Position numbers and translations under genes: made by a program. Shown piece by piece: positions 2,987 to 61,120 of a stretch of DNA of 64,000 nucleotides (position 1 is its first letter; the number at the start of each line of letters is the position of its first letter). The stretch spans positions 36,155 through 100,154 of the forward strand of contig JBAZMP010000003.1 of assembly GCA_041649715.1 (NCBI GenBank). The letters are read 5' to 3'. Under the pieces are notes generated by a model. The model was not told the DNA's origin and did not search any database. It was given only the letters and a program-made list of their open reading frames with translations. The stretch comes from Patescibacteria group bacterium (GTDB lineage Bacteria; Patescibacteriota; Patescibacteriia; JAXHNJ01).

Positions 2987-3508
2987 TTAATGACTTTTTT
3001 CCTGGATCGCCTTGAGGACATAAACCAGCTTGTTCAAATTTCCTTTTAAAGTATTCACTAAACCGGTCACCGGGCTCTTGATGACGTAAACCAGCTTGTA
3101 CAGTAATTCTTCTTTACTCGGCAGCTTCGCCATCGCCAAGACCTGCTCTTTCCCAATAAGCTTGTTTTCAAAAATACCGCCGACCAACTTAAGATTTTCG
3201 TGGATTTTGGCGAATTCATAACACAATTTAGCCGGCATGACCTCGTCTTCCAGGCCGAACGCCAAAGCAAAGCCGCTCGTCAGTTCATCTAAATTTATGT
3301 CCATCTTTTTTTCCTTGAGGGCTTTTTTCAAAAGGGTTTTTTTGGCGACGAAATATTCCACCTTATTCTCCCGCAATGTTTTTCTCAATAGATTTATTTC
3401 ATTGACCTTGAGCTTCTCATAATTAACGAAAACCAGGGCTTTCATCGCCTCTAAGTCTTTGGCTAATTTCTTTATTTCCAGTTCTTTTTCCTGGCGTGTT
3501 TTTGGCAT
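2987..3508 (-). CDS. rplJ: 50S ribosomal protein L10.
   Basis: MPKTRQEKELEIKKL... is a typical L10 N-terminus, located immediately upstream of rplL. The track ORF starts at TTG 3532, but ATG 3508 is preferred. Confidence 0.9.
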   Translation of the reverse strand: MPKTRQEKELEIKKLAKDLEAMKALVFVNYEKLKVNEINLLRKTLRENKVEYFVAKKTLLKKALKEKKMDINLDELTSGFALAFGLEDEVMPAKLCYEFAKIHENLKLVGGIFENKLIGKEQVLAMAKLPSKEELLYKLVYVIKSPVTGLVNTLKGNLNKLVYVLKAIQEKSH

Positions 3509-3700
3509 AAAAAAGAGGTCTTGACACCGCAAGACCTAGACAAGCATGGAAGTTTAACTTCACGCTTCTGCCTCGGTAGGAGATTAAGCCCCATTGGGGC
3601 GCCTACGGTCTGCGGCCTAAATAATTTGTTAACTTATCCACATTATAACAGAGCTAAAAATAATGTCAAATATCCAAAAAAGAAAGGGCGGTAAAAAACC
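3509..3700 (-). promoter_or_regulatory. Putative rplJ (L10) leader region with a terminator/attenuator-like hairpin (aggtcttg-cggtgt-caagacct followed by T6) directly abutting the start codon.
   Basis: An 8-bp stem plus cttttttATG on the minus strand at 3509..3539, with further GC-rich hairpins at 3545..3620. L10 leaders acting by attenuation are established in Firmicutes. No SD is visible. Confidence 0.35.
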
Positions 3701-40487: not shown

Positions 40488-42509
40488 CTATCTGTCATAA
40501 TTCGCCAAAAAGTTTTCTCTATCGGTAATTTTGTTTATCTCACTAATCAACTGCTCGGTCAAAATCTGCGGTTCCAGTTTTCGCCATCTATTTTCGATAG
40601 CTGTTTTACGGAAAGTAATATTAATCAATGGCGTAATATCCATCAACTTTAATATCCATTTCAACCTTGTCGGTGTTTCATCGATATATTTAATATATTG
40701 GTCTCTTACAAGTTTTGAATAATATTCAACGAATTGTATAGAATACTCGATTGATCCACTTTCCCAAGTAATTCGGCTGATTTCATGTTTATCTTGAAGG
40801 GTCAATTTATTCTTGCCAATAAATTTGATGATTGTTTGTTTATCCTTTAGATTTACCCCGGGATTAAAAATCGTATATATGATCGGCAAAGTCAATTTTC
40901 CTTCCGCGATATCATTATGTGATGTGCTTTTCATTCCCTTGCTCAAGTCAGACATTTGTTCTGGAAAAATTAAATCGCCCAAATCGTTCCTGATCATCTG
41001 TACCAAACCGAATATTTTTGAGATATAAATGCAGGCGCTTTCTGTTTCTTTTTTATTATAAAACTGCGCCCCGACATTGGTTGATTTAACAGCCATGCGG
41101 CCTATCTCTTCATAAAAAGCCCCGCAAATGCCATAAATCCGGTTAAAGTATTTCTTTAAAGCCGATTCTAAATTATTTTCCTGGATAAACCCTAATAAAT
41201 CCTTATTATTTGTAAATGTTAAATCAATATCAATCGGCTGTCCTAAATACATTATATATTGGACATCATTCAGGGCTGAAAGTAACTGTTTAGATGGTTC
41301 TTCCTTATCTCTGGTTAATTCGTATAACAAAACTAATGAGAGACAATGACCTATTGCACCCAGCAAAAAAGCGTTTTTTCTGCTTCCAAATTTTTTATGG
41401 AGTGTTTTTTCTCCCTGGCGACTGTCAGAATCGTCAAAAACATCATCAATGGCGTAAGTATTCAGCCAATTATATATTTCGAGAATGGCGCCCATTTGAT
41501 AAACAAAACTTTCATGAAAATATTTTTGTGAGGCAATAATATGATGACTAACCAAATCATAAAGCTCAAAAAAGATCGTCGGCCGAGTTTTCTTCTTTCC
41601 TTGTTTTCTTCCTTGAATTTCTTGGGCCGGAATATTAAACCAGTAGGCTATCATGCCAGAAATATCCTTAATATTTTTCTTTCCCTCGAAATAACTTAAA
41701 TACTTGCTGATAGAATGATAAAGAAATGGAACCAAGCTATTAAAATCTTCCTCAATTATTTGTTTGACGATTTTCGCGCGTTCATATTCTAAATTACATA
41801 TTTGACGGTAAGTAAATGGAACATCGAATTTTGTTTTACTGTTTTCAAAAACTTTGGTATTCAAGGCATATTTATTATAATCCGCATATTCCCCGCTTTT
41901 CTCCAGAATTTTCGCCACCACTGATATATCCGCATAATGACGAAGCTCCTTATCAACAGAATAATTAATAATCCCCTCCCTGGCGTAAATGGATTTATAA
42001 TATTTATCCAAATACTCAATAATTTTATTCTCAAATTGATCTTTATTTTCACAATAAAGAACAGCCGTGTGCGTGAATTTATCATTGTTTTTGGCAAATT
42101 CCGAGACTTCTTTGCTGGTTGTCAATATGGCGCCGATACTAAAAGTCACCATCCACTGGGCTGAATAGTAATCAAGGTGTTCCAAATTTTCTACTAACAT
42201 TATTGTCGGTTTTTCCTTACCAATCGCATAGCCGCATTCCCATGTACTATCCGTTCCGGCCGCTCCATTATTCTCCGTGTCATACATTTTCATGTAAGCA
42301 AGTATGGCATTACATTTATTTATTTCGCCTAAATCTTTTGTCGCAATTCTAATGGGAATTTTTCTCTGATCGGAGTAGTCTTCATCGATCAAGGCGGGCT
42401 GAAACAAATCTAACTTTTTATTAAAGAATGGCGAATATTCATCTTTAAAATTTTGTCTCCATAACTTTATTCCTGACGCTAAGTATATTTTATATCTTGT
42501 TACTGGCAT
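40488..42509 (-). CDS. Fusion protein: N-terminal nucleoside 2-deoxyribosyltransferase-like (NDT/SLOG-fold) domain plus C-terminal trans-polyprenyl diphosphate synthase-like domain.
   Basis: N-terminus: KIYLASG...CNAILAYM...NGAAGTDSTWECGYAIGKEKPTIML (NDT signature DxGTxxExGyAxaxgKP). C-terminus: GKKKTRPTIF (GKxxRP), first Asp-rich motif AIDDVFDDSDSRQGEKTLHKKFG (cf. IspB LLHDDVVDESDMRRGKATANAAFG), second motif region MIRNDLGDL...HNDIAEGKLTLPIIY (SARM degenerated to NDxxD, then GKxTLP). The gene is markedly AT-rich. Confidence 0.6.
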   Translation of the reverse strand: MPVTRYKIYLASGIKLWRQNFKDEYSPFFNKKLDLFQPALIDEDYSDQRKIPIRIATKDLGEINKCNAILAYMKMYDTENNGAAGTDSTWECGYAIGKEKPTIMLVENLEHLDYYSAQWMVTFSIGAILTTSKEVSEFAKNNDKFTHTAVLYCENKDQFENKIIEYLDKYYKSIYAREGIINYSVDKELRHYADISVVAKILEKSGEYADYNKYALNTKVFENSKTKFDVPFTYRQICNLEYERAKIVKQIIEEDFNSLVPFLYHSISKYLSYFEGKKNIKDISGMIAYWFNIPAQEIQGRKQGKKKTRPTIFFELYDLVSHHIIASQKYFHESFVYQMGAILEIYNWLNTYAIDDVFDDSDSRQGEKTLHKKFGSRKNAFLLGAIGHCLSLVLLYELTRDKEEPSKQLLSALNDVQYIMYLGQPIDIDLTFTNNKDLLGFIQENNLESALKKYFNRIYGICGAFYEEIGRMAVKSTNVGAQFYNKKETESACIYISKIFGLVQMIRNDLGDLIFPEQMSDLSKGMKSTSHNDIAEGKLTLPIIYTIFNPGVNLKDKQTIIKFIGKNKLTLQDKHEISRITWESGSIEYSIQFVEYYSKLVRDQYIKYIDETPTRLKWILKLMDITPLINITFRKTAIENRWRKLEPQILTEQLISEINKITDRENFLANYDR

Positions 42510-44286: not shown

Positions 44287-45672
44287 TTATTCTTCCCGGC
44301 CCTTTTCCGGATAAACTACTTCTGGCTGTAGGCCTAAGGCTTTCCGCGGCCGACGACCTTTTTCATCTTTTCCCATAGTCCGTTCTAGAACTTCCTCTTT
44401 GCGGATTGACCCTAGGGTGATGCTTACTCCCTCTTTTTCCGCCTGCTCAAGCATTTCCGGCCGGAAGCCGGCGGGAGTGACCATAATAGAACCTTTATGC
44501 TCGTGCAAAACCTGCATCATTTTTTTCCCGTGCGGAAGAGATTCAAGCCCTACCATCGGCTCATCAATGAAGTTTTTGGTAATGGTGCGCGGCTCATCAT
44601 CCTTATCATAAAACGGTGATCTTGCCCCCATCTTCTTAAGAGGACCCGCCAGTACCTTCAGCTTCGGATACATTTCTCCTAACGGAATATATTGAAAAAC
44701 ATATCGCGGACCATTGCCTTTTATTTCTCCGCTTTGGGTTAATTCTTTCTCGCGTTCATCAAATTCGTAAGCGGCATCCGCCCGGACGAACTGTAGATTG
44801 ACTTTTGAACCGAAATTATACTGATCCAATAATTTCAGGACTTGGCCGACAAAATCTTTCTCGCGGTATTTTTCCTCGGCAGTGATTTTTGTGTGCAGAA
44901 AAATTTCCAATCCCCTTCTGGCCTGCCTGGGCGCCTGTACATCCTCGGGAACCAACTCTTTCACCATTTTTAAATATTCTTCCAAAGTCGGAGCGTTCTC
45001 AATATCCTTTTTATTATATGAATGAACCACTACCGGTTCGCCGTCAGTTCTCATTTTAATGTCGCACTCAAAACCGCCAATCCCCTTTTCCAAATTTTCC
45101 CGGGTTTTCTCCACTTTAAAGCGGGGATCTTTCAAGGCAAACATCAAGGGAGTATCCAGTCCCACTTTTTCCGCCAGCTTCATTAACTTTTCCGTGCCGG
45201 GCTTCGGTTCATCAAATTTTCCTCGGTGCAGGATAACGTTCCGACGCGGTAAATATTCGGAAACCATTCTTCGCAAAACATGGGCCTGCAAACGCCTCAT
45301 TAAAGTCGTTTCCAATCCCACAAAATCATTTCCCGCGCCTTCCGAGAATCCGCCGGCTTCTTTCTTTAAACTCTCAATCTCATCAGGAGATTTTTCCAAC
45401 TCTAAATCTTTGAGGACAAAATCAGAAGAAATTCTAAGCATGTTTTTTACCTCTTCCTCGTCAACCTTATTTCTATTCATCCACGCCTGGAAATCTACTT
45501 TTTCGGCTTTTTCTCCTTCACCCATATAAAAATACTGCCCCTTGAAATATTCGACGGGGTCAGAGTCAATTTTTGCTAATTCTTCTACTAAAACCTGGCG
45601 GTAGTTATCGCCTTGCGTTTTTTCAAACCACTCGGGTAAATTGGGTCTAAATTCGCGGTTTTCCGGATTCAT
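44287..45672 (-). CDS. Hypothetical protein with a central GDPD-like (PLC-like phosphodiesterase) segment.
   Basis: FECDIKMRTDGEPVVVHS resembles the GDPD E-x-D...DG.PVV.HD core, but with HS in place of HD. The rest is unassigned. Confidence 0.35.
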   Translation of the reverse strand: MNPENREFRPNLPEWFEKTQGDNYRQVLVEELAKIDSDPVEYFKGQYFYMGEGEKAEKVDFQAWMNRNKVDEEEVKNMLRISSDFVLKDLELEKSPDEIESLKKEAGGFSEGAGNDFVGLETTLMRRLQAHVLRRMVSEYLPRRNVILHRGKFDEPKPGTEKLMKLAEKVGLDTPLMFALKDPRFKVEKTRENLEKGIGGFECDIKMRTDGEPVVVHSYNKKDIENAPTLEEYLKMVKELVPEDVQAPRQARRGLEIFLHTKITAEEKYREKDFVGQVLKLLDQYNFGSKVNLQFVRADAAYEFDEREKELTQSGEIKGNGPRYVFQYIPLGEMYPKLKVLAGPLKKMGARSPFYDKDDEPRTITKNFIDEPMVGLESLPHGKKMMQVLHEHKGSIMVTPAGFRPEMLEQAEKEGVSITLGSIRKEEVLERTMGKDEKGRRPRKALGLQPEVVYPEKGREE

Positions 45673-51425: not shown

Positions 51426-51974
51426 TTATTTGAAATAGTAATGTTTATATCCTTTCTTTTTCATCAGCATGGCATGGTATCTTAAATGCTTGATAAAATC
51501 TTTCTGACTAATGCCAAGTTTACAAAAAATATAGAGAATTTTGTTATTATTCTGTTGGTTGTCTTTGCCCTGTATTTCCACCTCGACAAAATTACCCAAA
51601 CCCCTAACTTTATCCAAACAGATCTCTGCGTTCCGATAAATATAGTATTCTCTTATTTTTTCTACCACCACAATTTTTTTGGCCCCTAACAGGTTCAAAA
51701 TCCTAGTCAGCATTCCGTAATCGTAAACAACTAATTCATTCTCCTCGCCGGCCGTGGCGCTGATATACCGATGATACTCCAGCCTCGCCTGACCGCTGAT
51801 TTTATCATAACGGGTACGCAAAACACCCCGACCTAAGGGAGTAAACCTCCTGGCCTGAGGTAAATAATAAGTATCAATCTGGTGCTTTATCACTTTCTTT
51901 CTTGCCCCTATTTTCCGAAGTCTAGACTTAACGGCTTTTAAATCCTTAGCCCTGGCTTTTATTTCAATTTCCAT
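51426..51974 (-). CDS. CYTH-domain protein (class IV adenylate cyclase/triphosphatase-like).
   Basis: MEIEIKARAKD N-terminal ExExK motif and later FVEVEIQG acidic motifs of the CYTH fold. Confidence 0.55.
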   Translation of the reverse strand: MEIEIKARAKDLKAVKSRLRKIGARKKVIKHQIDTYYLPQARRFTPLGRGVLRTRYDKISGQARLEYHRYISATAGEENELVVYDYGMLTRILNLLGAKKIVVVEKIREYYIYRNAEICLDKVRGLGNFVEVEIQGKDNQQNNNKILYIFCKLGISQKDFIKHLRYHAMLMKKKGYKHYYFK

Positions 51975-52049: not shown

Positions 52050-52739
52050 TTAAGCGCCGAATCTGCGCTGCCTTCGGGAATATTCTGCAATCGCCTCATC
52101 TAAATCTTTCTCGCTAAAATCCGGCCAATGCTTCTTGATAAAATATAGCTCGGAATATGAGGATTGCCAGGTTAAAAAATTGGACAGCCTCATTTCTCCT
52201 GAAGTCCTGATGATCAGATCCGGATCCGGCATACCGGCCGTGTATAGATTTTCCGCGACCAGTTTTTCCGTGATTTTAACCGGGTTAATTTTTTTCGCCA
52301 CTATTTTTTTTACGGCGTCGATAATCTCCGGCCGGCCGCCATAGTTGATGGCGATATTCAAAATGCCGCGAGTGTTGTTTTTTGTCAATGCCATGGTTTC
52401 CCCGATCGCTTTCTGCAGATCTTTTGACAATTCTTTTATCCGCCCGATGACCTGGACTTTCACATTTTTTTTATGAAGGCTTCTGATATCGGTGGTTAAG
52501 CCGTGTTTCAGCAACCTCATCAGATAGGCCACTTCTTTTTTGGAACGGTTCCAGTTTTCCGTAGAAAAAGCGTAAACAGTCAGAATTTTAATCCCCTTCT
52601 TCAGGCATAAATCCCCCATTTTCATGATCTTGTCGTAACCCTTTTTGTGGCCGTACAAAGTCGGCAAACCGCGCGCGCGGGCCCAGCGCCGGTTACCGTC
52701 CATAATGATGCCTAAATGTCGAGGGATTTTTTCGGCCAT
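52050..52739 (-). CDS. uppS: Undecaprenyl diphosphate synthase (cis-isoprenyl transferase).
   Basis: HLGIIMDGNRRWA motif and FSTENW/RxxxE motifs. Confidence 0.85.
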   Translation of the reverse strand: MAEKIPRHLGIIMDGNRRWARARGLPTLYGHKKGYDKIMKMGDLCLKKGIKILTVYAFSTENWNRSKKEVAYLMRLLKHGLTTDIRSLHKKNVKVQVIGRIKELSKDLQKAIGETMALTKNNTRGILNIAINYGGRPEIIDAVKKIVAKKINPVKITEKLVAENLYTAGMPDPDLIIRTSGEMRLSNFLTWQSSYSELYFIKKHWPDFSEKDLDEAIAEYSRRQRRFGA

Positions 52740-52973
52740 AAAAAAGAATTTTTTCGTAATATTAATGGATTAGTTCTATTCTAACCGATATTTTTTGTTT
52801 GGTCAAGTAAGCCAAAATTTGACTAAAATAAGACCAGTTGATAGGATATTAATATCAAAAAATTTCTGGCGGGGTATGGCCTCGAAGGCATCGGCGCACG
52901 CTTCGCCCCGCAAAATTTTAACTCCATTAAAATTATACGGGGTAAAGGTGCGTTCAAGAAGAGCGGGTCGCAC

Positions 52974-53046
52974 CGGGGTATGGCCTAATTGGCAAGGCGC
53001 ACGCTTCGGGTGCGTGAGATTCTGGGTTCAACTCCCAGTACCCCGA
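52974..53046 (+). tRNA. tRNA-Pro (anticodon CGG).
   Basis: Manual cloverleaf: 7-bp acceptor with C1-G72, D-arm with G18G19, anticodon stem cacgc/gcgtg with loop ttCGGgt (U33, G37), 5-nt variable loop, T-arm ctggg-TTCAACT-cccag, A73. CCA is not encoded. Confidence 0.85.
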
Positions 53047-53293
53047 TGCGACCCGCTGGTTCACCCTGTCATACTATGGGGTGCCACGGGTTTATCCCGT
53101 GGCAACTCCCCCGGTACCCAATTATATTATTTCCTAAAAACAGCAAATCCTTCAAAAGGCTGTTTTTTATTTTAGAAATTCTAACAATTAAACCAAGCCA
53201 AGTATAATGTTTTTTGAAGCAACAAATCAGTAAGTCTGTATAAAAAATGCTTTTACAAAACGTTAAATTAGATATCATAAAAATAGACCGACA

Positions 53294-53322
53294 CTTGCAA
53301 AAATCGTGAAAATATGGTAAAA
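53294..53322 (+). promoter_or_regulatory. Sigma70-like promoter (TTGCAA, 17 nt, extended -10 TGgTAAAAT) for the 1243-aa gene.
   Basis: Good hexamers at 17-nt spacing, about 75 nt upstream of the ATG at 53400. Confidence 0.4.
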
Positions 53323-53399
53323 TATATTAATTCAACCTTAATTTCTTATCATACATATCTTAAAGCAAACTCTTATAAGTATTATATATTTTTACGGCG

Positions 53400-56300
53400 A
53401 TGAATGAAACTGGGGCAAAAGAAAACCAACCAGACGTTTTAGACGTTTTAGAAACAAGCGCTGAAGAACCAAAAAAGAAAGAAACGCAAGAGGATATCTC
53501 ACGAGATTCTCTCATTCCCCGGCTGTCTAACCAAAAAGCAGCCATGGATTTTAATATTGAATCAAGGGCGAGGTTAATCCAAAGTATTTTTCACTCTCTA
53601 GAAAATGGAGTTGAACCCGGTGTAACATTGCCAGAAAAGGAAATGCTAAAACCCGAGGCAGTACTAAGAAAAATTGAAAAAAACATATCTCGACTATCTA
53701 ATCCCACTATTGATGATATCTCGAGTGTGCTTACCTCCTCGGGCATGGAAATGGCTGGTATCAAGTCAGGTCTTCTTATCGATAGAACTAAAATCGAATC
53801 TCTTGCTAATGATAAAAAAAATCTAGGTGATAAAAATGATGAATTTTCCGCCAGATTGGCCGCCGAAGAGAAAAGAAATTTTTTTGTTAAAATATTCCGG
53901 GGGAAAATGAGACGGGAGTTGGCAGACCAGATTAAAGAAATATCCGTTCAAAGGACGAAAACTGAATTCCTGATTGAAGATAGCCAGTCAGCGGCTAATG
54001 ACACCGAAAGTGTAATAGAACGTATATCAAAGCTAAGACAAGACCTTTGCCTTAAAGCCTCTCAACAACTATTCCAGGAAGTAATTGAACAGTATAACCA
54101 GTTCCATGAAAATTTAACGACTCCCGAGGTAAAACAAGCGTTAAATAGCGATCTAATCGCCAAAGAAGTGGAACCAGCCCTTTGGATATTGATCTCCAAC
54201 GAAGATCTTACCGTAGAAGAGGCAAACGAATATATTGAACTCTTAAAAGCTCAGTTGGCCGAAGACAACCAAAGGCATTGGGATGAACCGCCCGAAAAAG
54301 AAGAAGTCAGGCGCCAGCGAAGAAAAAGAATAGAAGAACTTAACCAACAATCAGATTATCAGCTGAGAGATATCGGCAATCGAGTTGACCGCCAAGAATC
54401 TTTAGCGGCGGATAATCACTATAACGAGATATTTAATTTTCTGCTCCGGGAAGAAACAAGAAGCAAGGTAGAACAGCTCTATAATTCACTGAAAGATTCT
54501 TTAAGCCCTGAATTACAAAACGAATTTGAAAGAATATTTACTGAAAAAAACATGATTTTAGATAATAATAATTTACCAATTAAAGAATTCGACAGACTTA
54601 CGGGGCTGGAACGATGGCAGATCGTTAAAAATTTTACCAAAAATTCAAATATCATATCAAGAGAAACTTTTTCGCGTACGGAAAAAATCATCATCAACAG
54701 GCTATTCAAGGAAGAGCTTTTTCCCGGCGGCCGAGAATCATGGTCGGGAACCTACGCCGCGATAAAACTCGGGGCGCTTGAAAATCCCGAGGCATTACCG
54801 CTTATGCTAAGACACATTGAATCTTCAGGCGTCGGACATACTAATAATGCGGTCGCATATGAAATGGAAAAACTGATGCAAAAAAGCAATCCGACTGAAC
54901 TTCAACAAGTCTTGGAAGCTTTACCTAAAAATAAAAGAGCTTTACTCCAAACCATGGTTGACGAAAATTCATACATGAGCCGTTTCGGCCGTTGCAACTC
55001 TCGCTATATTACCTGCGATCTTTTGCAAAAAGGCGACATAACGCTTAAACAAGAACAATATGCGAAATTATTAGAAGAGACCGGACTGCCTGAAGAAGAA
55101 TTAGGGGAATTTTATCTTTTATTCGGAGACAGGGAAAAGATATTGGAACAAATCAAAAAAGTGTCTGAACTGGCGGGTGAAGATAAAAAACAAGCAATCA
55201 ATAATTATTTTGAAGTGCTAACTTCGTATATTGAGCCCGAATCCCCGGAATCTCTAAAAATCATTGATGCCTTGTCAAACGAATTGGAGGTTCCCAAAAC
55301 AGATCTTCTTGTTCGTTGCGTGGAAAAATTTGAGAAACCTCGCCGAAACCATATACTAAGAAAAGTGGTATCACCCGATGATAAGGATTATGCGAGCTTC
55401 CCTCTCGCTTTTTCCAAACTATATTTTGGCTTAGAAAAAGACTCTCTTGAAAAATTAGCTAAAGTTTATCAAACAAAAAGTTTACAAACCAGCAGCCTCG
55501 AAAGAGAATTTTTTCTTGAAGGGCTTTTATTACTCAAGGGGAAGGAAAACGGCAAAATCGTTCTGGATATTTTATTAGATAGATACAAAGGGGCAAAAGA
55601 TGATCCCAAAAGAATGAGACGCATATTTCAAACTCTTTCGACGCTTGATGGTTTTGGCGAATACGGCCTGGCGGTACCAAATCCAGACAAAGAAATGAAG
55701 ATAAACCAAGAAATCTTTAATCTGCAAAATCAATATTCACAAACACAAGATAAAGCGGGGCGAAAAGTAATAAAAAATCGGATTGAAGGGTTAAATAGCG
55801 ACCGGCAAAATCTGACGGGATTAAAAGGTATTGAAGACGCCATGATAGAAAAAGTGGTCTCGGTCGCGTGCCGACGGCTGGAATTACCGCCAGAATTTCA
55901 AAAAAAGATAGAGAATAATTTAGACGAGTTGCTGAAAAACGGCGTATTTGAAATAGTCCCAACTTTAGCGGGAAAATATGAAGAAAAGGACGAAAGAGAA
56001 ACTAAAAATCTTCTAAAAATAATAACTTCTCATATTATAGAAGGTGACTTCAAATCATGGCGATATTCACACGAGCGAAGCGAAAAACAATTATCTGGCT
56101 TGACAGAAGAACAAAAAGATTATTGGATAAAAGCATCAGAACCCGTCACTCTTGAAATCGAATCCTCTAGAGACGAGAAAGAAAAACGGGCAGAAGAGTT
56201 GAGGGCAGCCCAAGAAATAATTTTAAATGCCAAAGAGCATATAATAAATTCGCAACCGGACTTTGATTTTTCGAAAGAAAGAGCACGAACACTGACAGAA

Positions 56301-57131
56301 AAAACAAAGGAATTAACGGAAAAAATTAAATTAGCTACTTCTCCAGACGAAAAACAAAAATTGATTGCTGAAAAAAGGAATGCTCAAGCGATAGCGACAT
56401 TAATCAATGGCCTCCTGGAAATTGAAAACGCAACCCCGCAATCTTTCGCCCGCGAAAAAATAGTTACACAAGCTAGAGAATTATCCGAAAAAATGGTCGA
56501 GCTAAATATGCCGCTAGCCAATCTGGATTTGGAACAAATGGAGAAAATATTTACCGTTGGGGATATAAAAAGCGTAAAAGCTTACGAATCGGATGATCCG
56601 CTAACCTTACTAAATATAGGGGTGGAACCGCAAGAAACCTGCCAATCGTGGAGAAACGGAGGATTTAATGAATGTTTACTGGCTTATGTGGCTGATAGTA
56701 ATAAAAAGGTTATTAATGTCGCCGATGAAGAAGGCCGAATTATCGCTCGCAGCGTTATCAAACTTAATGATTACAAAAATGAAAACGACACCGAATCTAA
56801 AACACAGAAAAAAACTATACTTTTGGAAAAACCGTATTCTTTGCGGCCGAATATAGAAGTTTACCGCGCTTTTGCGCGCGTACTATTAGCAAAAGCCCAG
56901 GGTCTTGATTCTTCGATTACTCTAAGTAATGGCTTGGATCAAGACATTATCAAAATTTTTGAAGAAGAGGCGCGCGCTTTCGGATATGAAATAAATGAGG
57001 GTAAATTTGAGATTTATATACCGCCGAGCTTGAACAAATACGAATATAGCGATTCATTAGGCGGTAAAATCGAATGGTTTGACAGATATCAAACAATTAA
57101 TGCAACGACATTTGAAAAAATTAAGTCATAA
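53400..57131 (+). CDS. Large (1243 aa) cytoplasmic hypothetical protein. Lys/Glu-rich, predicted helical/coiled-coil, no recognisable catalytic motif.
   Basis: Uninterrupted 3.7-kb ORF with no signal peptide. AT-rich (about 38% GC). Immediately downstream of tRNA-Pro and followed (4-nt gap) by a Rieske protein gene. Confidence 0.6.
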   Translation: MNETGAKENQPDVLDVLETSAEEPKKKETQEDISRDSLIPRLSNQKAAMDFNIESRARLIQSIFHSLENGVEPGVTLPEKEMLKPEAVLRKIEKNISRLSNPTIDDISSVLTSSGMEMAGIKSGLLIDRTKIESLANDKKNLGDKNDEFSARLAAEEKRNFFVKIFRGKMRRELADQIKEISVQRTKTEFLIEDSQSAANDTESVIERISKLRQDLCLKASQQLFQEVIEQYNQFHENLTTPEVKQALNSDLIAKEVEPALWILISNEDLTVEEANEYIELLKAQLAEDNQRHWDEPPEKEEVRRQRRKRIEELNQQSDYQLRDIGNRVDRQESLAADNHYNEIFNFLLREETRSKVEQLYNSLKDSLSPELQNEFERIFTEKNMILDNNNLPIKEFDRLTGLERWQIVKNFTKNSNIISRETFSRTEKIIINRLFKEELFPGGRESWSGTYAAIKLGALENPEALPLMLRHIESSGVGHTNNAVAYEMEKLMQKSNPTELQQVLEALPKNKRALLQTMVDENSYMSRFGRCNSRYITCDLLQKGDITLKQEQYAKLLEETGLPEEELGEFYLLFGDREKILEQIKKVSELAGEDKKQAINNYFEVLTSYIEPESPESLKIIDALSNELEVPKTDLLVRCVEKFEKPRRNHILRKVVSPDDKDYASFPLAFSKLYFGLEKDSLEKLAKVYQTKSLQTSSLEREFFLEGLLLLKGKENGKIVLDILLDRYKGAKDDPKRMRRIFQTLSTLDGFGEYGLAVPNPDKEMKINQEIFNLQNQYSQTQDKAGRKVIKNRIEGLNSDRQNLTGLKGIEDAMIEKVVSVACRRLELPPEFQKKIENNLDELLKNGVFEIVPTLAGKYEEKDERETKNLLKIITSHIIEGDFKSWRYSHERSEKQLSGLTEEQKDYWIKASEPVTLEIESSRDEKEKRAEELRAAQEIILNAKEHIINSQPDFDFSKERARTLTEKTKELTEKIKLATSPDEKQKLIAEKRNAQAIATLINGLLEIENATPQSFAREKIVTQARELSEKMVELNMPLANLDLEQMEKIFTVGDIKSVKAYESDDPLTLLNIGVEPQETCQSWRNGGFNECLLAYVADSNKKVINVADEEGRIIARSVIKLNDYKNENDTESKTQKKTILLEKPYSLRPNIEVYRAFARVLLAKAQGLDSSITLSNGLDQDIIKIFEEEARAFGYEINEGKFEIYIPPSLNKYEYSDSLGGKIEWFDRYQTINATTFEKIKS

Positions 57132-57522: not shown

Positions 57523-59739
57523 ATGCTTTTGTCCTCGGTATCCCTTCATTAGAAGCGCGTTCAAAACCACACTGACCGAAGAAAAAGCCATGGCGGCCGC
57601 GGCAAACGCCGGGTTTAAAAGCCAGCCGGTCAAAGGATATAAAACTCCCGCGGCAATGGGAATGGTAAAGATATTATAAATAAAAGCCCAAAAAAGATTC
57701 TGTTTGATTTTTTTCAGGGTATAATTGCTTAAATCCATCGCCTTTATCACCTGCCGCAGATCATCTTTGATTAAAATAATGTCTCCGGTTTCCATGGCCA
57801 CATCCGTGCCGGAACCTAAAGCCAGCCCCAAATCCGCCTGCGCCAAAGCTGGCGCGTCATTAATACCGTCGCCCACCATAGCCACTATTTTTCCGCCAGC
57901 TTGGAGTTTTTTGATTTCGGCGGATTTATCTTGGGGCAGCACTTCGGCTAATACCTTGTCAATTCCCACTTTTTCGGCGATCGCTCGGCCGACCCGTTTA
58001 TTGTCGCCGGTAATGATCATGACTTCCTTATTCATTTTATGCAGAAGATCGACCGCATCTTTTGAATTTTCTTTAAGAGTATCTGCGACACCAATTAACC
58101 CGATTATTTCCGAGTCGTGTGCGAGTATCATGGCCGTCTGCCCTTGATTTTCTAAAGCCGCCAGCTTATCCTCAACTAAGGAAAAATCAATCTCATTATC
58201 AAGCATTAATTTTCTGGTTCCTAATATAATATTATGATTGTTTAATTCGCCTGTAACTCCTTGGCCGGGTACCGCCTTAAAATTTTTAACCGCTGACATT
58301 TCAATTTTTTCTTCTTTCGCTTTTTTAACGATGGCTTGGGCCAAAGGATGTTCGGAATTATTCTCAATGGATGCGGCTATTTGCAGGATACTTTTAACCT
58401 TTAACTGTGAACTTGGAACCCGAAAAATTTCAGTGACAATCGGCTCTCCACGAGTTAAGGTGCCAGTTTTATCAAAAACAACCGTGTTAATTTTGTGGGC
58501 CGTTTCGAGAGCTTTGGCGTTTTTTATCAAAATCCCTTGTTGCGCGGCCAAACCCGTCCCCATCATTACCGCCACGGGGGTGGCCAGTCCCAAGGCGCAG
58601 GGGCAAGCGATGATTAAAACAGAAACCAGAACGGATAGGGCAAAAACTAAAGATTGACCGGCGATCAGCCAGACAATAAACGACAAAAGACTAAGGCCGA
58701 TTACGGCCGGCACAAAATAATAGGCGACTTTGTCGGCCAGGGCTTGAATCGGGGCCTTGGAGCCCATCGCCTCTTCCACTAAACGGATGATCTGTGAAAG
58801 CATAGTCGCTTCCCCGACCGCCAGGGCTTTTATTTTTAACACGCCGTTTTGATTGACTGTGGCTCCGATTACTTTGTCGCCGGCTCTTTTTTCTTTCGGC
58901 AGACTTTCGCCGGTAATCGCTTTTTCATCCACACTGGAATCACCTTCAACCACGACGCCGTCCACCGGGATTTTTTCGCCGGGTCTGACTAAAACAATAT
59001 CACCGATTTTAACTTCGTTTATTTTAATTCTTACTTCTTGGCCGTTTTTGATGATAACCGCTTCCTTTGCCTGTAAACCGGCCAGTTTTTTAACGGCCTG
59101 CCCCGTCCGGCCTTTGGTCAGGCCTTCTAGATATTTGCCTAACGAAATAAAAATCAAAATAAAAATTGCACTTTCATAATATATGGTAGGCATGCCAATG
59201 GATCCCTTGAGCAAGAAAATGACGGAAACAATTACGCTATAAAAATAAGCCACGACGGTGCCCATGAAAATCAAAGAATCCATGTTCGGCGATAATCTTA
59301 CTAATCCCTTGAGACCGGTGCGTAAAAGATTAAAATTTACGCTCATCACCATAGTCGCCAGAATAAATTCCGCATAAGGGCGGTAAGTCTCCCCTAAAAC
59401 CGGCAAACCGAGCATTTCTCCCATCACGAGATAAATAACCGGCAAGCCGAAAATCAGCGACAGGAAGAAACTTTTTCTTAATTTTTTCACGTCGCCGACT
59501 TCATGATGATGCTCGTGGCTATCCCCTTCCTCAACCACTCCATACCCCAGCTTCTTGATTTCCGACTTTATCTTATCCAGAGAGATCAAGTCCATATCAA
59601 ACTCTACTTGCGCTTTTTCCGAGGCGAAATTGATGTTAAAAAGTTTGATTCCCGGCATTTGGCGCAAAGCGTGTTCGATATTAACCGCGCAGGTCACGCA
59701 GCTCATGCCGGTTAATTTTATGCTGATTTTATGTATCAT
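57517..59739 (-). CDS. copA: Copper-translocating P1B-type ATPase.
   Basis: N-terminal HMA domain (GMSCVTCA), CPC motif ([13 protein letters not shown]), DKTGTLT phosphorylation site, [10 protein letters not shown]. The track ORF extends to 59841; ATG 59739 is preferred as it avoids overlap. Confidence 0.9.
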
Positions 59740-59743
59740 AAAT

Positions 59744-61120
59744 TTAGTTTTTCGCCACCACCTCAATGGTGCCGACCACCATCCCCATCCAGCAGCTGAA
59801 TTTGTATTTGCCGGCAGGCGGCGGCTGAAATTCCTTGACACTCGTTTTCCCGACCGTCAAATCGATCTGCCCGAGAAAAAGGCTTTTTCCAATCACCTTG
59901 TTGGTACAGCCCGAAGTGCCGGTATCCTGGATCTCCCAACGGACCGGAATTCCTTCTTTAACTTTAAAATAATTCGGGAAATAACCGGCGGCCGAAGCCT
60001 CCATTTTTATGACCTGTTTGCCGGAGATTACAGGCGGGAAACCATCCTCGCTGGCCTGCGCCTGATTATTGGTTTTAAAGTTTAAATTGTTCAAAGAAGG
60101 CCAGCCCAAAACGTTAAATTGAGCGTTGAGGTTAAATAAGGCGAAAAACAAGACTAATACCCCGGCGGTTTTCAAAAAAAGATTGGCAAACTTCTTATGA
60201 CTGAAGAATTTCACGCCAGCCAGACCGATCAACAATAAAGGAATGGTCGTGCCTAAAGCGAAAAAAAACATAATTAAAGCGCCCTGCCAGAAACTGCCGG
60301 AAAGTAGTGCCAAGCCTTGACTAGTGATGGTAAAACCGCAAGGCAAGAAAAAAGTGGCTGCTCCGGCCAGCAAGGGAAAATACCGACCTTTGAATTTTCT
60401 TTCATCGCTTAGACGGCTAGTCAAACCCTTGGGCAAAGAAAATTGAAAAGCTCTTAGAGCTTTTACGCCCAGCATCTGCAGGCCCAGGAGAAACATCAAC
60501 ACGGAAACCGCCATCACCAAAATAGAGGTGAAAGTCAGGGATATTTTAAGCTGACCGCCAAGCACGCCTAAAACACCGCCCAAAACCGCATAAGAAATCA
60601 GCCGGCCGGCGTTAAACATCAAATGCGGCTGTAATTTTTTAAAAGTGGAATCCGTCTGGCCGTAAAGATCCAGCCATTGCTTGGACAAAGACAATATAAT
60701 CCCACCGACTAAAGCGGCGCAGGAGGTCAGACCGGCAAGCCCCCCGAAAGCGAAAAAAGTGGGCAGCGAGGACTGCGCCTGGACATTAACTAAGGAGCTG
60801 AAGCCCAGACGGTTCAGCAGGAAGAAAAACAAGATTATTCCCAAAGAAATTAGAGAAATTTTCAAAATACTTGTCTTAGATTTTTCCCCCATATTTTCTG
60901 CTTCTAACTCAAAAAAAGTGTAGCCGTCTTTTTGAAAAAGTTTATTTAAATCCGCTAACGAGGGAATTTCCCCTTCTATCGCTGCCTGCTCTTTTTTCAA
61001 GGAAACATTAACTTTCTTCACGCCTTTGATTTCAGAGATTTTTCTTTCCACCAATAAAACGCAGGATGAGCAGTGCATCCCTTTGATTCCGTAGATCTTT
61101 TTCCGAGTATTAATTTCCAT
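59744..61120 (-). CDS. HMA-domain membrane protein with a DsbD/CcdA-like TM core and a C-terminal cupredoxin-like domain.
   Basis: N-terminal [11 protein letters not shown] motif, about 8 TM helices, and a C-terminal beta-rich domain with Cys/His/Met (GCTNKV...SCWMGMVVG). Confidence 0.55.

Follow-up and report, generated by a model that had tools for sequence, protein, structure and literature searches.

Several described systems resemble parts of the locus reported here, in which a complete tRNA-Pro(CGG) gene appears to lie nested between the pieces of an older one. The locus is located in a 64-kb stretch of a Patescibacteria (candidate phyla radiation, CPR) metagenome-assembled genome, and this whole stretch is referred to as the window. 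The closest systems are partial tRNA copies of the attachment-site (att) type, found as attL and attR of islands, in CIME-like elements and in Prochlorococcus tycheposons (bioRxiv 10.1101/2020.12.28.424599). They share with this locus direct partial copies clustered at one tRNA, breakpoints in the anticodon and T loops, downstream 3′ fragments of another allele and, in some relatives, a recombinase gene beside the tRNA. The locus differs from them in its upstream 5′ halves, which enclose the gene, in a nested and not tandem arrangement (two halves make one gene), in inserts of 60-330 nt and in junction hairpins that covary; in the window, no integrase was found by Pfam at approximately 37-63 kb.

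Free-standing GIY-YIG homing endonuclease genes are known from the tRNA cluster of phage T4 (SegB, PMC2330249), and SegB-driven segmental amplification has been described (PMC13096335). The likeness lies in a small GIY-YIG gene beside tRNAs and outside a self-splicing intron, in occupied and empty alleles, and in a flanking tRNA that is co-converted or duplicated. Here, however, the genes reside in bacterial chromosomes and not in phages, the proteins, of 83-88 aa, consist of the catalytic domain only, and the target seems to be split and replaced by a carried copy; the window copy differs further in having no GIY-YIG open reading frame (ORF) in any frame of the 64 kb (jackhmmer). Pairing of flanks around a stable RNA is known from the leader-trailer helices of rRNA operons, the RNase III stalks (PMC10250234), which likewise covary, join the ends and offer a site of double-strand RNA cleavage. 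In our case the helix surrounds a single 73-nt tRNA, has 8-13 bp, is stacked on the acceptor stem and occurs in about one fifth of the sampled loci. By shape only, the locus also recalls archaeal multi-intron and split tRNAs (reviewed in PMC4090602), with hairpin inserts in the D, anticodon, variable and T regions, up to three per gene, and with halves lying apart; unlike these, it belongs to a bacterium, the copies with inserts are truncated or decayed, and they enclose a complete, uninterrupted tRNA with the same anticodon. YrlA and related bacterial Y RNAs have a tRNA-shaped module and an acceptor-like stem continued by a flanking helix, whereas here the tRNA is complete, a regular anticodon arm included (63 bits with RF00005), and there is no other Rfam match at E <= 10. 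No Ro/Rsr gene was seen among the annotated neighbours. In the searchable literature we found neither nested tRNA genes nor pre-tRNA clamps described for CPR.

We consider it on balance probable that the locus is a tRNA hot spot scarred by replacement of the cassette type, together with a helix that would insulate the inner tRNA, or guide its processing, at the RNA level. An initial annotation of the window had proposed repeated recombination at this tRNA, leaving att-like remnants or a structured element. The hot spot is borne out by the copies in relatives, and both the leader-trailer helix (clamp) and the hairpins at the junctions of the pieces behave like a conserved structured element, with compensatory changes; simple att scars did not hold, as the pieces on the two sides appear to form one enclosing gene. 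The centre of the locus consists of the following elements:

52962..52972, + strand: 5′ strand of the clamp, AGCGGGTCGCA, an 11-bp leader-trailer helix (inverted-repeat search, folding)
52974..53046, + strand: inner, functional tRNA-Pro(CGG), 73 nt, CCA not encoded (ARAGORN, Rfam RF00005)
53047..53057, + strand: 3′ strand of the clamp, TGCGACCCGCT, same 11-bp leader-trailer helix (inverted-repeat search, folding)

ARAGORN identified tRNA-Pro(cgg) at 52974-53046 as the only tRNA in 64 kb, and cmscan matched it to RF00005 over the full model (1-71) with 63.1 bits against a gathering score of 29, in agreement with the tRNA-Pro(CGG) that had been annotated at this place. The molecule forms a cloverleaf with normal D and T loops and a 7-nt anticodon loop. 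The perfect 11-nt inverted repeats noticed around it were confirmed, with corrected offsets: the 5′ arm ends 1 nt before the tRNA and the 3′ arm begins immediately behind discriminator A53046 (1 nt and 0 nt, instead of 2 nt upstream and 1 nt downstream). Clamp and acceptor stem together make 19-nt arms that are 95% complementary, the sole mismatch being the C.A opposition of C52973 (position -1) and A53046 (position 73). The clamp 11-mer occurs at a single locus within the window. Folding of the 111-nt stretch of clamp and tRNA gave -59.5 kcal/mol versus -38.5 +/- 3.5 in shuffles (z = -6.1), and the whole 266-nt region also folds much better than its shuffles (z = -7.3).

The stretch around this clamped gene, 52870-53119, reads as a single older tRNA-Pro gene (the "outer" gene), into which GC-rich hairpins and the working inner tRNA are set. 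The survivors of the outer gene stand in the right order: 5′ half, 3′ strand of the anticodon stem, T arm and 3′ end.

52870..52905, + strand: outer tRNA-Pro 5′ half, positions 1-35, D loop shrunk to GCCU-CGA-AGGC (exact 13-mers)
52906..52942, + strand: H4 hairpin after anticodon-loop position 35, with a CCCCG...CGGGG stem under an A/U stem (inverted-repeat search, relatives)
52943..52954, + strand: TAAA, then GGTGCGTT, outer tRNA positions 36-43, anticodon-stem 3′ strand (relatives)
53062..53083, + strand: hp1, a weak hairpin CACCC...GGGTG (read from aligned sequences)
53078..53119, + strand: outer T arm GGGG/CCCC around hp2, AACT, then a decayed acceptor 3′ strand GGTACCC (repeat search, homology to "aactcccagtaccccgac" in L060/L062)
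53083..53103, + strand: hp2 hairpin GCCACGGG-TTTA-TCCCGTGGC, in the outer tRNA T loop (inverted-repeat search)

The numbers L002-L066 denote related loci and contigs compared with the window. The 5′ half contains two exact 13-mers, 52870-52882 and 52893-52905, that are identical to 52974-52986 and 52996-53008 of the inner tRNA (positions 1-13 and 23-35), order and spacing being kept. These confirm the partial copy annotated at 52869-52911, with the exception of its closing stem: the CCCCGC at 52906-52911 is an arm of H4 and pairs with the CGGGG at 52938-52942. Comparison with relatives also showed that the cggggta at 52939, taken for a further tRNA fragment, is one arm of H4. This hairpin is present at the same junction in six loci, namely the window, L006, L062, L066, L046 and L052, with compensatory changes in the stem, and in all five other loci it is followed by TA(A/T)AGG(T/C)GC. 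The clamped inner tRNA occupies the variable-region position of the outer tRNA parse.

On the right-hand side, hp1 is orthologous to a 13-bp hairpin, caccgtgaacc...ggttcacggt, of L060 and L062. In the same two loci hp2 has the same loop, GTTTA, and a different stem with compensating changes; it occurs once in the window, and an identical hairpin occurs twice in L039. The annotated downstream echo of the tRNA 3′ end is present, imperfectly, at 53104-53119 (53101-53118 had been given), and is homologous to a "ggcaactcccagtaccccgac" remnant at the same place in L060 and L062. Reading 53113-53119 against 52870-52876 leaves 5 of 7 pairs of the outer acceptor stem. The features of a functional tRNA are absent from the outer copy: its D loop is CGA, its anticodon loop holds a 37-nt hairpin plus TAAA, and its T loop holds a 21-nt hairpin. 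No second tRNA was reported for the window by ARAGORN or Rfam. Two other readings of these sequences were rejected. In the minimum free energy parse the outer acceptor stem was UGGCGGGGU/ACCCUGUCA, and the outer T loop contained the tRNA; this parse was dropped after comparison with L060 and L062, and both foldings compete. A 5-bp target duplication, GGTGC, fits L046 and L052, but in the window and L062 these bases belong to hp1.

The divergent gene upstream of the tRNA, at 52050-52739 on the - strand, is uppS, encoding undecaprenyl-diphosphate synthase (UppS), and the window protein is 100% identical to an NCBI protein of "Patescibacteria group bacterium". We used homologues of uppS at 77-90% protein identity to compare the flanking sequences. 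Two types of tRNA-Pro(CGG) were distinguished: type A, that of the window, which starts with cggggtatggcct, and type B, which starts with tcggggtatagcgcagttgg. In L006, L062 and L066, where uppS is 74-79% identical to that of the window at nucleotide level, the order is the same: promoter, type-A 5′ half to position 35, H4, TA(A/T)AGGTGC, a spacer and a complete tRNA-Pro(CGG). The contigs of L006 and L066 stop inside the inner tRNA. In L062 the inner tRNA is followed by hp1, hp2 and the start of a type-A 3′ end, "aactcccagtaccccga" ("aactcccagt"), at which the contig ends; L060 has both hairpins and the full type-A 3′ end. Window positions 53062-53119 are the orthologue of this right end. It is the enclosed gene that differs, being of type B in L006, L062 and L066 (without a clamp in L062) and of type A with the 11-bp stem in the window.

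Partial copies are present in relatives, and their occurrence is statistically non-random, contrary to the outcome that the initial annotation had named as its refutation. Exact copies of at least 12 nt were found within 450 nt of 17 out of 54 tRNA-Pro(CGG) genes; for the other tRNAs of these contigs the figure was 7 out of 69 (P = 0.005). Chance similarity, or an error of metagenome assembly (for instance a chimera formed from strain variants), is extremely improbable. It is true that the window comes from a metagenome-assembled genome and that a locus polymorphic in related populations can mislead assemblers, but the architecture is repeated in independent JGI, Logan, ENA and NCBI assemblies, and the two colinear exact 13-mers, the perfect 11-bp repeat and the hairpin shared with L039 are far beyond chance.

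The polymorphism itself was met in relatives, not in the window's own population. Four JGI contigs (L060-L063) encode identical UppS, and uppS DNA is 99-100% identical among the three compared; the fourth, L063, stops before the tRNA region. On these contigs the locus is in three different states, occupied and unoccupied: L060 has a type-B tRNA and the 3′ remnant only, L061 an intact type-A-like tRNA, and L062 a split type-A gene enclosing type B. L017 and L046 differ likewise. Deletion between short cggggta repeats explains how L060 arises from L062 and L017 from L046.

Such deletions could also be expected if the locus were shaped by local replication errors, that is by slippage or template switching at a structured and highly transcribed gene with no mobile element involved. 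Direct repeats of the kind predicted do exist: the leader and 5′ tRNA part of L042 form a 62-nt direct repeat, and L057 (58 nt) and L024 (29 nt) repeat the 3′ end together with the host trailer. Identity that reaches into the flanks looks like duplication and not like att cores. Nevertheless we regard replication errors as an improbable explanation of the locus, because the outer and inner tRNAs are of different types in L011, L020, L029 and L062, GIY-YIG genes lie inside the split, and H4 is identical between hosts with only 75% identical uppS. In L011, L020 and L029 the outer halves differ from the inner tRNA (CGGGGTA/TACCCCG) at positions 6-7/66-67, and the outer acceptor strands pair with each other: CGGGGTG/CACCCCG in L011, CGGGGCG/CGCTCCG in L020 and CGGGGAT/ATCCCCG in L029. 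Since these halves match each other and not the inner gene, they derive from a single gene, of a different allele, into which the segment with the inner tRNA came and which it split; local duplication is excluded for them. The abutment is exact in L046 and L052, where G35 is the last base of the outer 5′ piece and G36 the first of the outer 3′ piece. As to H4, all 28 of 28 positions are identical between L062 and L006, which fits recent transfer or strong constraint.

The position of the breakpoints brings up another explanation, namely that integrase-bearing islands or prophages integrated repeatedly and were then lost (CIME-like), so that the hairpins and the clamp are functionless leftovers of element ends. 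The breakpoints are concentrated in the anticodon loop (35/36) and in the T loop (approximately 56/57), and tRNA-targeting integrases reportedly prefer the anticodon-loop and T-loop sublocations (the report is ascribed to Williams, 2002). The 3′ fragment "gagtcccagtaccccgacca" appears again 130-400 nt downstream in L016 (twice), L024, L034, L045 and L057. L061 and L020 have a chimeric tRNA and, behind it, a displaced 3′ half beginning in the anticodon loop. In three lineages a gene for a large serine recombinase converges on the 3′ end of tRNA-Pro(CGG): L008/L009/L036 (1640-2902), L037 (3-794) and L031 (7968-8270). Classical att scars predict 3′ copies downstream, however, and not upstream 5′ halves that enclose a gene. 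The window itself contains the decayed 3′ end copy at 53104-53119, but also the upstream 5′ half and segments of tens of nucleotides, which an att model does not predict. The "elements" between repeats measure only 60-200 nt. A clamp of fixed register, unrelated sequence and G.U bias is not expected of neutral element ends, the shape of the junction hairpins is preserved by compensatory changes, and no integrase was detected by Pfam in the window interval given above. Att scars as the sole explanation thus seem to us unlikely.

The strong fold of the region (z = -7.3) and its uneven conservation could also mean that all 250 nt function together as a structured RNA, selected for its own sake, for example as a processing platform that RNase P or RNase Z would recognise, or as a decoy or regulator that mimics a tRNA and is made along with it. 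Between the window and L006, identity amounts to 97% in the outer 5′ half, against 59% in the intergenic region and 74% in uppS. Hairpins recur at the same tRNA positions with compensation: H4 is found in six loci, and a double hairpin in the D loop follows U17 in four loci of distant lineages (L002, L030, L045 and L050). The tRNA-like parts of the fragments match the resident tRNA in L002, L030, L042 and L052, an identity that gene conversion between nearby repeats explains equally well. On the other hand, alleles with and without the scaffold occur in one population (L060, L061, L062) and the close relatives L008 and L064 have none, which indicates that the scaffold is dispensable. The pieces retained vary by locus, with breakpoints in the D loop, anticodon loop, variable region or T loop, the outer acceptor stem has decayed in the window, and no non-tRNA Rfam family matches at E <= 10. 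We therefore hold a functional unit of this size to be distinctly unlikely, more so than att scars.

The evidence for cassette-type replacement with an RNA-level helix includes the recurrence of the clamp itself. Forty-nine distinct tRNA-Pro(CGG) loci were surveyed by counting consecutive pairs outward from leader position -2 and trailer position 74. Ten of them have a clamp of 8-13 consecutive pairs, always starting at -2/74, and L020 is an eleventh, with 13 pairs and one mismatch. The length distribution is bimodal: the remaining 38 loci have no more than 4 pairs, 36 of them no more than 2. When leaders were paired with the trailers of other loci, the probability of 8 or more pairs was 0.004, so that 0.19 loci are expected, a figure that is itself inflated by related loci with a shared trailer. 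Clamp sequences are unrelated between lineages, for example gtcaaagtttgag, tgtaattag, aaatgggtaatg, gaacaaag and gcgcttttc. A same-register helix with different sequences in other Patescibacteria means that the clamp is not a by-product peculiar to the window.

Pairing of the flanks is kept through sequence change. In the 49-locus alignment the covariation score was 0.218 versus 0.121 +/- 0.012 in shuffles, none of 500 reaching 0.218, and slid registers gave at most 0.139. Internal non-Watson-Crick pairs of the clamps were G.U in 10 cases and A.C in 2 (P = 0.04). L002 and L005 share the 3′ strand of the clamp, and their 5′ strands differ by two transitions, both to G.U; this asymmetry points to selection on the transcribed strand and not on a DNA palindrome. 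Clamps co-occur with upstream decoy fragments (9 of 11 clamp loci versus 6 of 38 others, P = 1e-4). In partition-function folding, the native tRNA helices were predicted with lower probability once the 5′ clamp strand had been complemented; this held for 7 of 11 loci, with a fall from 0.71 to 0.52 in the window and from 0.95 to 0.15 in L020, and the compensatory double change restored the probability. The helix is not confined to tRNA-Pro, since a 13-bp leader-trailer helix, ttcgaactttgaa / ttcaaagttcgag, surrounds tRNA-Ala(CGC) in L039 (304-375) and L053 (1215-1286). In the tRNA clusters of these two loci, related palindromic ttcgaa.. and "cgattttcgatt" spacers recur between genes.

Candidate mobility genes were found near the tRNA in several relatives. 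In L011 and L045 an ORF with a GIY-YIG domain separates the outer 5′ fragment from the inner tRNA (Pfam PF01541, E = 1e-14 to 1e-16), and in L023 and L024 such an ORF lies directly upstream of the tRNA (E = 1e-14 to 1e-18 across L011, L045, L023 and L024); in L050 a GIY-YIG pseudogene is located downstream of the tRNA. The GIY-YIG ORFs are positioned as follows:

L011, 5946-6290
L045, 6443-6748
L023, 8975-9277
L024, 241-510
L047, 4585-4866 and 2532-2966

In the GIY-YIG proteins near tRNAs the catalytic domain is the only one found, and a DNA-binding domain was not detected. The proteins of L011 and L045 may act on the tRNA-Pro gene. Short ORFs consisting of GIY-YIG only (approximately 83-114 aa) were seen immediately upstream of, and in the same orientation as, tRNA-Pro(CGG), tRNA-Ser(CGA) and tRNA-Val(CAC) on several unrelated Patescibacteria contigs, and some of them end on the first base of the tRNA.

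The serine recombinase ORF of L008, as called, runs antisense through the whole tRNA gene, so that any translated tRNA-Pro matches it. Most other jackhmmer matches to "serine recombinase" in the loci are artefacts of this kind; the matches in L008/L009/L036, L037 and L031 are real. Genes resembling Y1 transposases (IS200/RAYT-like, PF01797) flank uppS in a number of relatives: L003 (2002-2556 and 3849-4451), L002 (4434-4700), L004 (1219-1422), L060 (1053-1274) and L064 (848-1039). One relative carries such a gene where the window has a CYTH-domain gene (51426-51974), and in L003 a Y1-transposase-like gene follows the tRNA remnants.

The window was searched for comparable genes. No integrase or recombinase was detected by Pfam at approximately 37-63 kb among ORFs of at least 150 aa not largely inside a longer ORF; the scan, by which tyrosine integrases were checked, covered 17 of 19 such ORFs (45059-45529 and 59555-60085 were left out) and one 109-aa ORF. 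Jackhmmer found no GIY-YIG, Y1 transposase (Y1_Tnp) or serine recombinase (L008 seed) over the whole 64 kb. The integrase that the initial annotation suggested seeking on this contig thus did not turn up in these searches.

Other identities were rejected in the course of the same work. At 52700-53420 cmscan gave only chance-level matches to families other than tRNA even at E <= 10, and this, with a scan of the whole window at gathering scores, ruled out YrlA-like, group I intron and transfer-messenger RNA readings. In particular, no intron family matched between the tRNA halves at E <= 10, where a group I intron core might have been sought, and the segment holds a complete tRNA. Dispersed REP/MITE or REP/RAYT elements and IS200/IS605 palindromes were rejected, as hp2 and the clamp 11-mer are unique in 64 kb and there is no Y1_Tnp ORF in the window; the junction hairpins, which hold their shape through compensatory changes, are not dispersed repeats there. 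CCGCC..GGCGG hairpins are 4-fold enriched near tRNA-Pro(CGG), yet they also occur near other tRNAs and elsewhere, and look like generic stable hairpins and not a single element family. A phage origin was rejected, the tRNA pattern having no match in viral contigs and the region no blastn match in GenBank phages. A scan of a genome collection with the first 45 nt of the tRNA gave one match, in Saccharibacteria, with plain flanks, which serves as a negative example.

Transcription of the locus was considered on the basis of candidate signals in the window:

52778..52806, - strand: sigma-70-like promoter of uppS, TTGACC-17-TAGAAT (promoter scan)
52819..52847, + strand: sigma-70-like promoter of the tRNA unit, TTGACT-17-TAGGAT, with TG before the -10 (promoter scan)
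53136..53172, + strand: candidate terminator, stem AAAAACAGC / GCTGTTTTT with a 14-nt loop and a T run (inverted-repeat search)

The two promoters stand back to back in the intergenic region between uppS and the tRNA. The -35 hexamer of the uppS promoter is the ggtcaa motif kept in all uppS-linked relatives, and the tRNA-side promoter is likewise kept in every one of these relatives, with TTGAC(T/G)-17-TA(A/G)(G/A)AT at the same place in L002, L003, L005, L006 and L060-L066. The hairpin at 53136-53172 is weak and failed a strict terminator scan, and so is given as a candidate only. Because the tRNA-unit promoter lies upstream of the outer 5′ half, all pieces would be expected in one precursor transcript, spanning the outer pieces and the inner tRNA.

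The following course of events, which we propose from comparison of sequences, would account for the locus. A segment carrying a complete tRNA-Pro gene would insert into, or recombine with, the resident tRNA-Pro(CGG) and split it, a step for which we see moderate support. The carried copy would take over the function of the split resident gene, and the nuclease or recombinase gene would be lost later, the window being a nuclease-less end state. The 11-bp stem would act in RNA and not in DNA, with the pairing of leader and trailer extending the acceptor stem. In a long precursor such a helix may favour the inner tRNA's own ends over the "decoy" outer halves, with which the real halves could otherwise pair. 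Stacked on the acceptor and T stems, the clamp would make approximately two turns of double-stranded RNA and probably offer an RNase III-type double-strand cleavage site, by which the tRNA could be freed before the action of RNase P and 3′ trimming. Bacterial RNase P is inhibited when pairing between leader and 3′ end prolongs the acceptor stem (PMC9433436), and one of the few ribonucleases that CPR have kept is RNase III, encoded by rnc (PMC12641178). Taken together, these make it likely that a double-strand cut or removal of the trailer comes first and RNase P acts afterwards.

A number of points weigh against replacement by cassettes combined with a processing helix. The loci were gathered by a pattern inside the tRNA-Pro(CGG) type, which biases the frequencies. 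Three enzyme families (GIY-YIG, serine recombinase and Y1 transposase) occur near the locus in different lineages, each of them a candidate only, and with no nuclease, recombinase or transposase found in the window the case for mobility comes from relatives only. The similarity of H4 between hosts could be due to constraint rather than transfer. With the outer acceptor stem decayed to 5 of 7 pairs, the outer parse of the 3′ part leans on homology to L060 and L062. As regards the helix, the A.C mismatches in the clamps of L050 and L052 are as compatible with a DNA palindrome as with an RNA helix, L012 and L044 have a clamp and no decoy fragments, while L030, L037 and L062 have nearby fragments and no clamp. 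The predicted effect of the clamp on folding is modest in the window and nil in 4 of 11 loci.

Overall, the locus is real and recurrent, and its arrangement is mechanistically suggestive, both the agent of mobility and the role in RNA being putative. As a tentative possibility, which we think less likely to be right than wrong, Patescibacteria may harbour selfish "tRNA-replacement cassettes" that are driven by GIY-YIG enzymes or recombinases, invade tRNA-Pro(CGG), bring their own tRNA copy instead of splicing and are shielded by hairpins and a clamp directing excision from RNA; the window would then be a nuclease-less descendant nested in a destroyed host gene. If this is true, mobile DNA that supplies a second copy of an essential RNA gene can reside in that gene and needs no intron to do so, and tRNA-Pro(CGG) is a hot spot of exchange in CPR, in whose genomes few mobile elements have otherwise been recognised. 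Some CPR tRNAs would then come from precursors with paired leader and trailer and be processed in another order, probably with a double-strand cut first. In practice, both tRNA annotation and metagenome assembly can be misled by nested loci, which give rise to pseudo-tRNA fragments and strain-level structural variants.

When metagenome contigs were scanned for the type-A 5′ part, 49 stretches were obtained. Further modules were noticed at related loci. A 36-nt hairpin, cccgcccgactgaa..ttcagtcgttcgggcggg, is present in pseudo-tRNA fragments after position 7 in L046 and L050 and after position 22 in L042; in both places it stands between TA and TGGC, which suggests sequence-specific insertion. 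GC-rich modules of approximately 100-160 nt, starting with "gggactcgaagg" and ending with "gagtcccagtaccccgacc(a)", represent a T arm with a huge insert in the loop. They are located at +230 and +393 in L016 and at approximately +200 to +230 from the tRNA in L024, L034, L045 and L057, sometimes in tandem, and in L024 and L057 they repeat the host trailer.

The remaining observations concern the neighbourhood of the locus in the window. The AT-rich orphan gene said to follow the tRNA is an ORF at 53400-57131 (+) of 1243 aa, rich in E, K and L, with approximately 38-40% GC. Pfam, PHROG and PADLOC gave no match for it, and none of the related loci has a homologue; nothing links it to the tRNA structure. 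Its place is taken in L002 and L003 by large proteins with CLIPPER/TRAP_beta domains. Further away, a 673-aa protein at 40488-42509 (-) contains a polyprenyl synthetase domain in residues 303-574 only, its long N-terminal part being without a family match. A ribosomal protein L10 leader (RF00557, 60.3 bits) at 3501-3633 (-) is the sole non-tRNA Rfam match in the window.

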